Positions 7,847-39,060 of a stretch of 58,657 nucleotides of DNA are shown here, one piece after another; within the stretch, counting starts at the first letter, position 1; every line of letters begins with the position of its first letter. Location of the stretch: positions 236,252 to 294,908 of the forward strand of contig CAZULS010000002.1 in NCBI GenBank assembly GCA_964621395.1, in the 5' to 3' direction. The DNA is from an uncultured Candidatus Saccharibacteria bacterium (GTDB taxonomy: Bacteria > Patescibacteriota > Minisyncoccia > Phycocordibacterales > JACNGX01). A model generated the notes under the pieces. The model had not been told where the DNA came from, did not search any database, and was given only the letters and a program-made list of their open reading frames with translations. Position numbers and translations under genes: made by a program.

Positions 7847-10492
7847 TTACTTCTTAATTCTCTTCTTGAGTTCCTTCTTCAAATATTTTCCCGTGTGTGA
7901 TTTCTCACTCGCAGCTACGTCTTCGGGCGTGCCTTTTGCCACGATGGTACCGCCACCTTCGCCTCCTTCAGGACCCATATCGACGAGAAAGTCGACGGAT
8001 TTAATCACGTCCATATTGTGCTCAATGGTAATCACCGTATTACCGCGCTTCACAAGCTCGTCGAGGATTCCAATCAATTTACGCACGTCTTCATAATGGA
8101 GGCCGACGGTCGGCTCATCGAGAAGATACACCGTCTTCTCCGTATGCGGACGATACAGCTCTGAAGAAATCTTCACGCGCTGCGCTTCCCCACCTGAAAG
8201 CGTCGTTGCCGATTGTCCAAGTTCGAGATATCCCAAGCCCACATCTACCAGCGTCTTCAATCGATCATAAATTGCCGGAATGTCAACGAAAAAGTCGGTT
8301 GCTTCCTCTACCGTCATGGAAAGCACATCGGTAATGCTTTTCTTCTTGTATTTCACCTCCAGTGTCTCTTTATCAAAACGCTTCCCGCCACAGACATCAC
8401 ACGTCACATACACCGTGGGCAAGAAATGCATTTCCACGGCAATGACACCATTTCCCTGGCACGCTTCACAGCGTCCGCCACCGCGCTCATTGGGCACATT
8501 AAATGAGAAGCGCCCGGATTTCCATCCGCGAATACGCGCTTCTTCCGTTGAGGCAAAAAGATCACGGATGTGGGTGAATGCGCCGGTATAGGTTGCCGGA
8601 TTGGAGCGCGGTGTGCGTCCGATGGGCGATTGATCAATCAAAATACTGCGCGAGACATATTCCGCTCCCTCAAATGACGCACAATTGTACACATCATTAC
8701 TGCGATATTTCTTCTCAAAGCGTGCACGAAGATTCTGATACAAAATCTCATGCATGAGCGACGACTTCCCCGATCCGGACACGCCGGTAATTGCCACAAA
8801 GCGCCCGAGCGGAATATCGAGTGAGAGATTTTTAATATTAAAGACCTTCCCACCGCGAATTTTAAGCGCACCTTTATTACTATCCCTGCGCTTCTCGGGC
8901 ACGGGGATGAGTTTTTCACCGCGGAGATATGAAAGGGTCTCTGATTTGGAAGGATTGGTTTTTGCTGAAAGGAGTTTGTCGAGATAGCCGGAAACAACAA
9001 CATCACCCCCGCGCACGCCGGCACCCGGCCCAATATCCACGATATAGTCGGAAGCAAAAATAGTATCTTCATCGTGCTCAACAACGAGAATGGTATTGCC
9101 CAGATCACGGAGATGCTTCAGTGTGTGAATGAGACGGTCATTATCACGCTGATGGAGGCCGATGGTCGGCTCATCAAGCACATACAGCGCACCCACAAGC
9201 TGACTGCCGAGCTGTGAAGCAAGACGAATGCGCTGTGCCTCTCCGCCTGAGAGCGTATTGGCACGGCGATCAAGCGTGAGATAATCCAAGCCTACATCAA
9301 GAAGAAATTGCAGACGATGCTCAATTTCTTTGAGGATGACCTTGGCGATTTCGTGCTCACGTTTGCTCAGCTTGAGCTCAATGAAGAAATCGGCGGCATC
9401 ACGTACCGACATAGCCGTAAGCTCCACGATATTCACCCCTATATCTTTTTTCTTCCCTTTATTTTTATTTGCTGTGCCCGGTTTTGGGTCCCCTAATGTG
9501 ACATGAAGCGCCTCTTGTCGCAGTCTGGCGCCATGGCACACTTCACACAGCTCTGTGCCAAATGCGTATTTCGTCCCCAATCCATTACATGCCGGACACG
9601 CACCATAAGGTGAATTGAATGAAAAGAGGCGTGGCTCAATTTCCGGATACGAAAAGCCATCATGCGGGCAGGCAAAGGTAGCCGAAAGAAGCGTCGTCTT
9701 CTCTCCGATACGGATACGCACCGAACCATCAGATTCCACAAGCGCGCGCTCCACCGCCTCAGCCATGCGTTCGCGTGTCGTTTTAGGGTCGGAATCAAAA
9801 TCAAGGAGATCAATCGTGTCTACCACGACATCAATTTCGTGTTTTTTCGTTTTGGTGAGGGTGATATTGTCGCGCAAACTCTTTTTCTCTCCATCCACGC
9901 GCACATGGGAAAATCCTTTGCCGAGAAGATCATAGAGGAGCTGATAGTGTTCGCCCTTGCGTCCGCGCACCACGGGCGCGCCGAGCTCCACGCCGAGTGA
10001 TTCATATGCCACGCCCATAACCTCTTTCGTATTTTTCTTCGCCTCCTTTTGCGCTGCTTTCACTTCTTTCAAAACAAAATTGATGATTTCATCCGGCGAC
10101 AATCGCTCAATCACCCTGCCACACACAAGACAATGCGGTTTGCCCACACGCGCATACAGCACGCGGAGGTAGTCGTATATTTCTGTGATGGTTGCCACCG
10201 TTGAACGCGGATTATTTGAACGGCTCTTCTGATCAATGGAAATAGCCGGCGAAAGCCCCACAATTTCATCAACATCCGGCTTCTGCATCTGACGAAGAAA
10301 TTGTCGCGCATATGCCGAAAGCGATTCCACATAGCGCCTCTGACCTTCGGCAAAAATCGTATCAAACGCCAAAGACGACTTTCCCGATCCGGAAAGCCCT
10401 GTGAAGACGACCATGGTATTGCGTGGCATTTCCACGGTAATATCCTTGAGATTATGGGTTCGCGCCCCTTTGACGATGATTTTTTCTTCCAT
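7847..10492 (-). CDS. uvrA: excinuclease ABC subunit A
   Basis: 881 aa with two ABC ATPase modules ([26 protein letters not shown] twice) and zinc-finger cysteines. Confidence 0.97.
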
Positions 10493-23861: not shown

Positions 23862-24191
23862 TCATTTCATTTTCTGTAACGCCGACTGTACCGCCTCAAC
23901 ACCATACACTTCTGTGACTCTGCTCAGTGCTTCGCGAACAGGATTACCTTCAAACATAAATTCCAGCGAAACACCGGCTATTTCCGTGGCATCAAGCAAT
24001 ACTTCTAATTTTGGATACTTTTTCCCTAATTCGACCAGGGAGACATAATTTCGACTCACTCCGAGTTTATCTGCAAACTCTTCTTGAGAAAGGCAGGTCT
24101 TGTCCCTGGCAGCCTTGAAATTCATGCCCACGATTCGCATCATGGTCTCGTGGTCCACAAGTAGCTTTTTATCCTCTTTCATAATGAACAT
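23862..24191 (-). CDS. XRE-family helix-turn-helix regulator
   Basis: LSQEEFADKLGVSRNYVSLVELGKKYP. Confidence 0.75.
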   Translation of the reverse strand: MFIMKEDKKLLVDHETMMRIVGMNFKAARDKTCLSQEEFADKLGVSRNYVSLVELGKKYPKLEVLLDATEIAGVSLEFMFEGNPVREALSRVTEVYGVEAVQSALQKMK

Positions 24192-24295
24192 GTTAGTGTG
24201 TTATCGAAGTTCTTTATTCTTGTTATCATAAGTAAGATTGTTTGTAAAGCAAATCAAATCAAAAATTCCGCTTGCGCGGAATTTTTGATGTTTTG

Positions 24296-25016
24296 AAGGA
24301 CCATGTCTGTAAGCCGAATTCTGTACGCGCTACGCGCGCGATAATGATTTATCTGGGATGTGTGTTGCCACACACCTCAATGCGGCACTCCGAGCACCAC
24401 TTTTGGTAAAAAATCTTTTTCACCAAAAGTGGTGCTCAGCACGGCCTTGCACACAGGTAAGGATTTAGCCGTTTCACTAAAACATTCGCTTGCGAATGTT
24501 CGTGCGAACATCATGCGCTTCTGCATGATGTTTTAGCACCCGCGTTACCACGGTACTAACCCTGCTCTCCTGAAAAAGAAAAACCGGGTTTCGATTCCTT
24601 TCGGAATACGACGTCTCTGCTCGCACCTCTATAGCCCCTTCAAGCTACCGACGGGCGTTACCCGCTACCCTTTTCCGACACCACTTTCATGTACTTGCTC
24701 TTTAAGAGCCTGTTCATAATCTCATGTCGTGCGTAATGCATCATATACCGAGCGAAAATCGTGAAAAATGACGAAGGAGTACTCTCGTACTTCAAGGCAT
24801 TTTGAGCGATTTGCAGCCGGTATATGATGTGTTAAGCCGACAAGGATATATTGTTCTTCATTCAATGCCGTTGAGATTATGAACAGGCTCTAAGGACGAA
24901 TAACCAACATGCTCGGTATCGCCCCTTCTCTCTGCAACTCCACAAAAGTGGTGTCGGATGTGTTCGGACTTTCCTCTAATGTTTCAAGAAACATCAGCCA
25001 TTACCCAACATGGCGT
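24296..25016 (-). ncRNA. rnpB: RNase P RNA, about 720 nt, expanded by repeat insertions
   Basis: The minus strand carries GAGGAAAGTCCGAACAC (CR-I like, ~24962-24978) and ACAGAATTCGGCTTAC (CR-V like, ~24309-24324), plus GGGTAACGCCCGT. P1-like CCATGT/ACATGG ends are present. A terminator hairpin lies at 24261-24286. Confidence 0.85.
24705..24891 (+). mobile_element. R185 TIR element inserted inside rnpB
   Basis: 20-bp terminal inverted repeats AGAGCCTGTTCATAATCTCA / TGAGATTATGAACAGGCTCT. A near-identical copy lies at 38879-39060. Confidence 0.8.
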
Positions 25017-25075
25017 ACAAAGCATTATATCACAATGTAACAATATGTCAAAAGAAAAAAGCGGGTACTCCCGCT

Positions 25076-25378
25076 TTATTTGAACACGGCCTTTGGAAAA
25101 ACAATATTTGTCGCTTTTACCACCACGTCTTCAGTCCATGCCATACCCTCTAAGGTCCACCCTGCAATATAAGTTATCCCCAGGAGAACATAAAATAGCG
25201 GAATTGCAATGATGTTTGGCAGGAACTTTTTAAAGATAAGGCGTGGAAAACTCATTTCTCTCACTCTTCCTCCCTCAAAGAAGAAGGCGACCTGGGCAAT
25301 AAACCCTTTCTTTTTCAAAGTTATTTTCATATCGTCCTGATTTAGGTTCGAAAAAATACTGCTTTCTTGAGTATACAT
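25076..25378 (-). CDS. hypothetical membrane protein
   Basis: 100-aa ORF with a TM helix. The terminator hairpin GCGGGTACTCCCGC lies just 3'. Confidence 0.45.
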   Translation of the reverse strand: MYTQESSIFSNLNQDDMKITLKKKGFIAQVAFFFEGGRVREMSFPRLIFKKFLPNIIAIPLFYVLLGITYIAGWTLEGMAWTEDVVVKATNIVFPKAVFK

Positions 25379-37718: not shown

Positions 37719-38867
37719 CTAGACGGAGAAATTATGAATCGAATACAAATCTTCTTCGTCATTCTTTTCCTGCTCTTCTTTGGGTGCGTATTCCTCTTCA
37801 GGCGACATCTCATGTGACTGCATCGTTTCTTCTTTCGTACGGTCATCGACAGGCACTTCTTCCGTTTCTTCCGATACGGTCGCAACAACATTCCCGGTAA
37901 GCGCTTCGGGAGCTTCAGGAATCGTCTCTTCCATTTCCTCTTTCACTTCCGGCGCCTCTTCGGTGGATTGCACATCGCTCCCCACTGCGCCGGCAGTGGC
38001 CATGCGCGCAAGTGGTACATGACCATTGCGGTTACCGTCACTTTCCTTTTTAAGGGCAGTGAGGATGAAGCGAATGTCGTCGTTGGAGAAGAAATCGATG
38101 GTGATTTTGCCGCCCACATCTTTGCGGTCAATACGCACACGAGTCCCGAGTGCTTCTGTAAGCTTCTCTTCCATTTCTACCATTTCCGGATCAAGTGTGT
38201 GTTTACGCACACGGTCGTAGGCAATGCGACGCGCAACACCTTCCGCCTCACGCACCGACATCTTCTTAAAAGTAATTTCTTTAAAAAGCGTCACCTGCTC
38301 CTCAGGGCGGTCATCAAGCATGAGAAGCGGGCGTGTATGTCCTTCGCTGATTTTTCCTTCTGAAAGAGCGCCGAGAATCTCTTCCGGAAGTGCAAGCAAA
38401 CGCATGGTATTGGAAACATACACGCGACTCTTCCCCACTTTCTTCGCAATATCGTTGTGCTTAAAACCGAATTCATCAGCCAACTTCTTAAACGCCACCG
38501 CACGATCCACCGGATTCAAATCTTCACGCTGGAGATTTTCAATAATCGCCAATTCAAGCTTCATGCGACTGTCATCTTCCATCGCGCGAATCACTGCCGG
38601 CACCTGGATGAGACCTGCGATTTTTGACGCACGGAGACGGCGCTCTCCGGCAATAAGCTCATAATCCACACCAATACCACCGTCTTCTTTTTCGAATTCA
38701 CGACGCGTCACCACAAGCGGCTGAAGAACGCCATACATGCGAATGGAATCGGCGAGTTCGCGAAGCGCCCCCTCGTCAAACTCCTTCCGCGGCTGATATG
38801 GATTTGGCTTAATCTTATCAACCTCAATATGAAAAATAGCGTTTTCAAAATATGATGCGTTGGACAT
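37719..38867 (-). CDS. parB: ParB/Spo0J partition protein with acidic C-terminal extension
   Basis: IKPNPYQPRKEF, LIAGERRLRASK, and an HTH region. The start was set at MSNASYFEN (38867). The track ORF extension to 38918 lies in repeat R185. Confidence 0.88.
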   Translation of the reverse strand: MSNASYFENAIFHIEVDKIKPNPYQPRKEFDEGALRELADSIRMYGVLQPLVVTRREFEKEDGGIGVDYELIAGERRLRASKIAGLIQVPAVIRAMEDDSRMKLELAIIENLQREDLNPVDRAVAFKKLADEFGFKHNDIAKKVGKSRVYVSNTMRLLALPEEILGALSEGKISEGHTRPLLMLDDRPEEQVTLFKEITFKKMSVREAEGVARRIAYDRVRKHTLDPEMVEMEEKLTEALGTRVRIDRKDVGGKITIDFFSNDDIRFILTALKKESDGNRNGHVPLARMATAGAVGSDVQSTEEAPEVKEEMEETIPEAPEALTGNVVATVSEETEEVPVDDRTKEETMQSHEMSPEEEYAPKEEQEKNDEEDLYSIHNFSV

Positions 38868-38878
38868 GGTAGGCGGGA

Positions 38879-39060
38879 AGAGCCTGTTCATAATCTCATG
38901 CCGTGCGTAATGCATCATATACCGAGCGAAAGTCGTGAAAAGTGTCGATGGAGTACTATCGTACTTCGAGACGCTTTGAGCGATTTGCAGCCGGTATATG
39001 ATGCATTAAGCCGGCAAGTATTTATTCTTCTTTTTTACGTTGAGATTATGAACAGGCTCT
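38879..39060 (+). mobile_element. R185 TIR element, copy 2, 12 nt upstream of the parB start
   Basis: Same 20-bp TIRs and interior (CATCATATACCG..CGGTATATGATG) as 24705-24891. Confidence 0.8.

Follow-up and report, generated by a model that had tools for sequence, protein, structure and literature searches.

In this study, we analysed a 58,657-nt stretch of DNA (the window) that carries an RNase P RNA gene, rnpB, interrupted by a transposon-derived element. The gene lies on the minus strand at 24297-25016, and its sequence marks it as a bacterial type-A RNase P RNA gene of about 720 nt. Eight conserved anchors follow one another in order along its type-A core: CR-I, P7/P8, J11/12, CR-III, P5'/P15, P15', J18/2 and CR-V. 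CR-I (GAGGAAAGUCCGAACAC, minus strand, 24960-24976) holds the 5' strand of P4 (24971-24963) and the start of P5, and CR-V (ACAGAAUUCGGCUUAC, minus strand, 24309-24324) holds the 3' strand of P4. An earlier reading made from the sequence alone (the sequence-only reading) had recognised the gene by minus-strand motifs, all of which we recovered: GAGGAAAGTCCGAACAC at 24976-24960, GGGTAACGCCCGT at 24663-24651 and ACAGAATTCGGCTTAC at 24324-24309. Its statement that the gene is roughly twice the normal size also holds, since the orthologue in the related locus L001 measures 402 nt. Upstream lies a promoter at 25024-25051 (minus strand) with TTGACA, a 16-nt spacer and a TG-extended TATAAT (12/12 consensus matches), and a promoter of the same type is kept upstream of rnpB in the relative L081. 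Transcription would start at about 25016-25018. An intrinsic terminator at 24258-24289 (minus strand), a 14-bp stem followed by a T run, is identical in L001 and L081. No open reading frame (ORF) of at least 60 aa overlaps rnpB on either strand (24192-25075), which rules out a coding role for the insert. The neighbouring dnaX places the host among the Patescibacteria, also called the Candidate Phyla Radiation (CPR), in the Parcubacteria/Paceibacteria group.

Related loci were collected by DnaX identity. L081 and L082, a TARA scaffold and a Logan contig, showed 96% identity; L001 (NIOZ-UU136) and L100 (a JGI metagenome contig) showed 90%. L002 and L101, both Candidatus Yonathbacteria, followed at 76-77%, another JGI metagenome contig, L102, at 75%, and two other Paceibacteria-like metagenome-assembled genomes (MAGs), L039 and L009, at 54-57%. 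Most relatives share the locus order Dus-rnpB-(variable ORF)-dnaX. L083-L088 (87-88% DnaX identity) have no rnpB beside dnaX and thus offered no comparison.

We examined whether the core of the expanded gene is intact. The Rfam scan of the whole window gave no RNase P match at the gathering threshold of RF00010, which is 100 bits. A permissive scan of 24000-25300 returned RF00010 at 59.6 bits, with type A as the best clan member for this RNA. P7 to the 3' end aligned convincingly, and P1-P4 were placed falsely on unrelated sequence within the insert; the score falls short of the threshold because of the 260-nt insertion. The covariance-model alignment that the sequence-only reading had proposed as a check therefore failed for the 5' third, and it was through L001 and explicit helix checks that a complete core was recovered. 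The L001 orthologue scores 105 bits over model positions 1-367, that is, the full model. The window gene aligns to it in two blocks, 25013-24941 with positions 4-79 (E=8e-7) and 24690-24294 with positions 71-402 (E=2e-72). Outside the expansion sites, the core blocks are 91-100% identical to those of L081 and 82-96% identical to those of L001.

In the explicit pairing check, P1, P2, P3, P4, P5, P7, P8, P9, P12, P14, P15, P18 and P19 were fully paired. P4 pairs at 8/8 positions with 24318-24311 and retains the conserved bulged U; the 5' strand of P7 is 24670-24666; P12 pairs at 7/7 positions with a bulged U; and P14 is CCGUG/CGCGG (5/5 pairs) with a GGUAAC loop. The core helices P1-P5, P7-P12, P15 and P18 of the RF00010 type-A model are thus all represented. 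Among the type-A-specific elements, P14 and the P16/17 arm are present. The P16/17 arm is a rod that pairs along its whole length and leaves no free loop, and P6 pairing is accordingly not evident. A type-B RNA (RF00011) was considered and ruled out, as P14 and P16/17 are present and P10.1 and P15.1 are not; the absence of the latter two also means that the type-B L5.1-L15.1 contact is impossible here. By L001 homology and the helix checks together, the catalytic core is complete.

The window rnpB exceeds that of L001 by about 321 nt. The interval from CR-I to P7/P8 measures 295 nt in the window compared to 35 nt in L001 and L081, and that from J11/12 to CR-III measures 134 nt compared to 70-73 nt; all remaining anchor intervals are equal in the window and these two relatives. 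Three sources account for the extra length, namely a miniature inverted-repeat transposable element (MITE), a unique extension of about 73 nt in J5/7, and a 62-nt module after P14. The sequence-only reading had ascribed the size of the gene to repeat elements inside it. A MITE does sit inside rnpB, but it accounts for no more than about 58% of the added sequence (187 of about 321 nt), and the 62-nt module at 24539-24478 and the roughly 73 nt of the J5/7 insert that are not MITE had been overlooked.

The long helix that encloses the insert 3' of CR-I and P5 is real and longer than had been claimed. Its 5' arm at 24934-24957 pairs with its 3' arm at 24698-24675 (both on the minus strand) at 22/24 positions and encloses about 240 nt. 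L001 and L081 carry a short J5/7 hairpin, CCAAGCACCA-UGA-UGGUGYUYGG, at the same place, and a J5/7 hairpin is present in all nine rnpB genes compared (9/9), with sequences that differ yet remain self-complementary. The helix is therefore ancestral and was not made by the insert. In type-B (Bacillus-type, RF00011) RNAs, P5.1 is the helix that emerges between P5 and P7. The insert-enclosing helix is the lengthened stem of an ancestral P5-P7 hairpin in the P5.1 position of type-B RNAs. The 5' part of the unique extension (24894-24933, minus strand) is non-repeat sequence and includes a small hairpin. The non-MITE parts of the insert have no second copy in the window or in any collected locus and are therefore not repeats, and the extension of about 73 nt is older than the MITE insertion.

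The sequence-only reading had described a complete 187-bp element at 24705-24891, and we found that it is indeed bounded by perfect 20-nt terminal inverted repeats (TIRs). The element proper, GAGCC...GGCTC, occupies 24706-24890 (about 184-185 bp, perfect 19-nt TIRs) and is flanked by two copies of its target site, TAA on the plus strand and UUA in the RNA, at 24891-24893 and 24703-24705. The window contains four TIR matches, belonging to two elements, compared to 0.01 expected by chance. The empty site without the MITE would read CGTCCTTAAAGAGC. A 3-bp TNA duplication is perfect in 4/8 elements, including the rnpB copy with its TAA/TAA. A TNA target is a trait of the IS5 family. At the RNA level, the MITE termini pair at 19/19 positions, and the MITE RNA folds into a rod (-74 kcal/mol). 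When the MITE and one TAA are removed, the J5/7 extension folds into a 101-nt hairpin (-49.3 kcal/mol) in which the target UUA is unpaired. The whole insert folds autonomously (-125 kcal/mol), and the core hairpins are still predicted in the full-length fold.

The second MITE copy in the window, at 38879-39060, is intergenic and 87% identical to the rnpB copy, so that the two are not near-identical as had been stated. Its flanks, GAA and TTA, do not form a perfect duplication, and about 10 nt separate its end from the probable ATG of a 399-aa minus-strand ORF (37719-38918 as listed), upstream of which it lies. The MITE end sequence was also found in 11 metagenome contigs. Five of them (L089, L090, L094, L095 and L096) hold complete elements of 173-184 bp, and five further contigs hold single ends. 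L099 carries an autonomous insertion sequence (IS) of 918 bp at L099:183-1100 with the same TIRs and two overlapping ORFs that match DUF4096 (5e-20) and DDE_Tnp_1 (6e-16), and plasmid homologues of this element are annotated as IS5 family transposase. Based on the TIRs, the target duplication, the dispersed copies and the autonomous partner, the rnpB insert is identified as a MITE of an IS5-family insertion sequence. The remaining MITE copies are intergenic and none lies in a structured RNA gene, which gives no sign of rnpB targeting.

Some further features of this transposon family were observed. At L099:183-1121 and L095:687-718, IS or MITE copies stand head to tail with the end of another copy, with a TTA target between them, which suggests nested or tandem insertion at one site. 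The 19-nt transposon end occurs singly in L091, L092 and L098 (GC content 45-67%), which look proteobacterial (KdpD/KdpE in L092, MltF/RadC in L098), and the IS lineage may span very different hosts. A promoter-like site, TTTTCA-16-TATGAT (9/12 matches), lies inside the rnpB MITE at 24740-24767 on the rnpB strand (minus). It is probably a chance match, as shuffled versions of the region are expected to contain 1.4 sites of this kind, although it could in principle start a transcript of the 3' fragment.

At 24392-24437 (minus strand) the sequence-only reading had placed a second inserted hairpin belonging to a dispersed family. The hairpin exists and is perfect over 22 bp (22/22 pairs), but it is not inserted: the RF00010 alignment assigns it to P16/P17 at a high posterior probability, and it is 100% identical in L001, L081 and L082, with its stem conserved in L100 and L101. 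Nor does it belong to a dispersed family. In a search covering 1.24 Mb of related sequence, CACCACTTTTGG and the paired CACTTTTG...CAAAAGTG occurred only within rnpB genes, and this candidate was rejected. The native P16/17 arm is thus a regular part of the gene. The 62-nt module after P14 (24478-24539, minus strand) consists of two hairpins, Hb (24532-24507) and Hc (24500-24481), with the layout GUGCUAAA-hairpin-CGCAC-GAACAUUCGC..GCGAAUGUU-UUA. One copy is present in the window and in L100, two in L101, and none in L081, L001, L002 and L102. Across the four copies, 6/25 pairs maintain pairing through changes on both sides, and these compensatory changes imply that such expansions are kept as folded RNA.

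We then compared the size of rnpB across the relatives. Only the unexpanded genes of L039 (about 359 nt, 123 bits) and L001 were detected at the Rfam gathering score. The genes of L102 (461 nt), L081 (486 nt), L002 (517 nt), L101 (531 nt), L009 (about 600 nt), the window and L100 (724 nt) were all missed, so that RF00010 overlooks 7/9 rnpB genes of the clade. The L100 gene reaches its length without a MITE, and large peripheral expansions are therefore normal for this lineage. Extra sequence is found at five variable sites: the J5/7 hairpin, a hairpin after P12, the region after P14, the tip of P16/17, and P19, between the 3' strands of P2 and P4. The distribution of these expansions is patchy. 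The 62-nt module is common to the window and L100 and absent from L081 and L001. L081 (L081:9127-9234) and L100 share a homologous three-hairpin expansion of P19 of about 85 nt with GCAA loops, and the window and L001 are without it, a distribution that conflicts with the order of DnaX similarity. L081 and L082 have the short J5/7 hairpin without the MITE. Since these relatives share 96% DnaX identity with the window, the MITE was inserted after that split and the insertion is recent. In a separate observation, the 16-mer CCACTTTTGGTCGAAT, together with its partner, was seen to close expansions whose site in rnpB differs between species: P16/17 in L101, and after P12 in L002 (L002:7835-7925) and L102.

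The slot between rnpB and dnaX is itself variable. The window encodes there a 109-aa HTH_3 protein (23862-24191), L081 an unrelated 203-aa ORF (L081:9331-9942) without a Pfam match, and in L001 the slot is empty (L001:5915-5981). In L100, the dnaX call spans only 262 aa; an EcoRI-type methylase and a GmrSD/HNH protein come next (L100:1538-5838) and may represent a defence island that entered at the 3' end of dnaX.

Comparison of stems within single genes showed that the J5/7 and P16/17 stems of one gene have nearly the same sequence. These twin hairpins occur in the window clade (24934-24957/24675-24698 against 24392-24437 in the window, and likewise in L001 and L100) and independently in L009 (L009:8008-8157 against 8311-8453). 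Their self scores are 15-25; the corresponding scores between lineages are 10.7 ± 3.5, and no more than 3 in 1000 shuffles attained the observed values. In L009, a palindromic repeat of about 100 nt built of 9-nt units (AAGTTCATC/AAGTTTATC) occurs twice within one rnpB, at 8028-8131 in the J5/7 hairpin and at 8326-8428 in the P16/17 arm, with 91.5% identity over 71 nt. In L009, expansion from a repeat thus seems to have happened independently. The twin hairpins could be explained by intragenic copying, a shared ligand or alternative pairing.

The sequence-only reading had left two alternatives for the insert, tolerance of the expansion by the ribozyme or removal after transcription, and these are still the right pair. 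Taken as a whole, the rnpB gene is quite probably functional, to judge from its sequence. That it functions with the insert retained in the mature RNA is a narrower claim, based on modelled structure, which we put forward with moderate confidence. We infer that the insert is transcribed and kept in the mature RNA and that the ribozyme is active. According to this explanation, the ribozyme of the lineage would combine a rigidly conserved core with several peripheral sites open to extra helices. The lineage would already have carried a P5-P7 hairpin in the P5.1 position, and this hairpin would have been lengthened to about 100 nt in the ancestor of the window. An IS5-family MITE would then have transposed, as DNA, into an unpaired TTA of the extension and duplicated its target. 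Transcription would run from the gene's own promoter to its terminator over the entire length of about 720 nt, and the 260-nt insert would fold on itself into a rod closed by the 24-bp helix and pointing away from the core. Because such a rod would project from the core, P1-P5, P7-P15, P18 and the P4 pseudoknot could still form and the enzyme could work. The 22-bp perfect P16/17 duplex is native and conserved, so long duplexes are not in themselves harmful in this RNA; this slightly favours retention of the insert over cutting.

Several points weigh against retention in a working ribozyme. Transcription and activity of rnpB are deduced from sequence features, and the view covers 58 kb of a genome that may have, elsewhere, another rnpB or a protein-only RNase P. 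The MITE insertion is recent, being absent from a relative with 96% DnaX identity, and an intact core is therefore not yet proof of purifying selection since the insertion. Look-ups of the exact DnaX (342 aa) and HTH proteins, and searches with the insert and the MITE ends, revealed no other genome that carries this insertion. Finally, a 260-nt rod beside P5 and P15 could clash with substrate or protein binding.

The strongest rival is that the insert is cut by RNase III without religation, leaving a functional two-piece RNA joined by P1, P2, P4, P5 and the remaining stem. In its favour, fragments suffice to reconstitute M1 RNA, and RNase P RNAs retain activity after circular permutation. The 19-bp stem of the MITE terminal repeats (19/19 pairs) or the 24-bp closing helix (22/24 pairs) would offer cut sites. 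The insert is self-complementary, lies at the tip of a peripheral hairpin and is sporadic among close relatives, the geometry and distribution of an intervening sequence (IVS) of rRNA. A precedent exists in CPR bacteria, whose rRNA genes hold many short insertions without ORFs or intron features that are thought to be intervening sequences cleaved by RNase III (PMC11270868). Indiscriminate cutting, however, would also sever the native 22-bp duplex of the tRNA-binding P15-17 region. In addition, the RNase III signature motif E[RKQ]LE[FWYL][LIVM]GD was not found in the window, L081, L002, L101 or L102, which represent a small part of each genome. We regard cleavage as a serious competitor that is clearly less probable than retention of the insert.

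Less probable than a functional gene, and less than cleavage, is a recently inactivated pseudogene. In this case, the MITE would have disabled this copy, and tRNA 5' processing would rely on another rnpB or on a protein-only RNase P outside the window. The insertion is young, as its absence from L081 and L082 indicates, so a lack of decay is uninformative; the Rfam score is only 59.6 bits, and the rest of the genome lies outside the 58-kb view. On the other hand, the MITE missed the core and landed in a linker that is unpaired and forms the tip of a peripheral hairpin, as expected of insertions that survive selection, and neither the promoter, the terminator nor any conserved region is damaged. 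In addition, CPR bacteria have small genomes in which rnpB is normally present once. The equally long rnpB of relatives is the sole detected copy and occupies the syntenic position, and rnpB is treated as a required single gene (PMC8172020). These results make inactivation improbable.

An assembly artefact or a minority population variant is also less likely than a functional gene, and we consider it very unlikely. The window probably comes from a metagenome-derived assembly, as the relatives are all MAGs; repeats commonly cause misjoins, and the insertion was not found in any second assembly. Against this, the TAA duplication is perfect, rnpB continues exactly on both sides, and removal of the element with one TAA restores a continuous hairpin, unlike a misjoin. 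The other copy in the window is only 87% identical, so reads from the two would not be confused. A self-splicing intron or other self-removing RNA is hardly credible: although group I and group II introns are frequent invaders of structural RNA genes in CPR bacteria (PMC11270868; PMC8172020), the permissive Rfam scan of 24000-25300 showed no intron or ribozyme family except RNase P, on which ground the hypothesis was rejected, the region has no ORF of at least 60 aa, and the TIRs, the target duplication and the transposase-bearing relative are those of a DNA transposon.

Beyond the single insertion, we tentatively consider a broader interpretation in which the Paceibacteria RNase P ribozyme grows by gaining and copying self-folding modules, transposon derivatives included, that are kept as selected expansion segments. 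This would fit the patchy modules that are incongruent with the tree, the same stem at different sites and in different species, and the twin hairpins that are alike within one gene. The pattern would then reflect intragenic copying or gene conversion, or else a shared partner that replaces the lost P6 pseudoknot. The MITE in the window might, somewhat speculatively, be a first step of domestication caught in the act. If modules are copied within or between rnpB genes, they would parallel, in bacteria, the expansion segments of rRNA and open a way for mobile DNA to enter a catalytic RNA.

The gene of about 720 nt is a natural rnpB with a datable transposon and with sister genes that lack it, and it reveals sites that tolerate hundreds of extra nucleotides. 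The window and its sisters provide a ready-made comparison of the same core with and without the insert. These results also help to account for the many CPR genomes reported to lack rnpB, a point of importance where rnpB serves as a completeness marker. The gene family and its tendency to expand are already known; what is new is that one expansion derives from a transposon, that the hot spots are defined, and that close relatives gain and lose modules. Our literature search found no IS- or MITE-derived insertion in a bacterial rnpB and nothing relevant on fragmented RNase P RNA, which is not proof of absence.

Five known systems resemble parts of this gene. Compared to IS5-family MITEs, the window element is ordinary in itself, with ends that start with GAG, a 3-bp TNA duplication, about 180 bp without an ORF, and a 918-bp two-ORF relative; it is unusual only in its location inside an essential ribozyme gene. 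The P5.1 of type-B RNAs has the same helix position as the enclosing hairpin, whereas the rest of the window RNA is type A, with P13/P14-like hairpins, P16/17 and P18; the hairpin acts as an additional arm in that position and does not make the RNA type B. Repeats within rnpB also have a parallel in heterocyst-forming cyanobacteria, where Vioque is said to have described, in 1997, STRR repeats, short tandem heptamers in P12. The likeness is a genome-wide repeat in a peripheral helix that does not destroy the gene; the cyanobacterial repeats are tandem heptamers in P12, and the window holds a 184-bp inverted-repeat transposon derivative in the J5/7 hairpin.

Closest to the gene itself are the diverged RNase P RNAs of CPR bacteria. 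Lui, Nielsen and Arkin (2021) lowered the Rfam thresholds to find 10/35 CPR RNase P RNAs and described large helix extensions (PMC8172020), with which our results agree and which they extend. As in the window, these RNAs are derived from type A, score below the cut-off, and have helix extensions or missing helices. That study, however, reports no transposable element in rnpB, no modules of variable copy number, and no gain or loss among close relatives at five sites. The intervening sequences of bacterial 23S and 16S rRNA genes, which RNase III excises, share with the window a self-complementary insert at a peripheral hairpin tip of an essential RNA, sporadic among relatives, and they are frequent in reduced genomes, including those of CPR bacteria (PMC11270868). 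The window differs from them in that the host RNA is that of RNase P, the insert is demonstrably a MITE, and cleavage is only putative.

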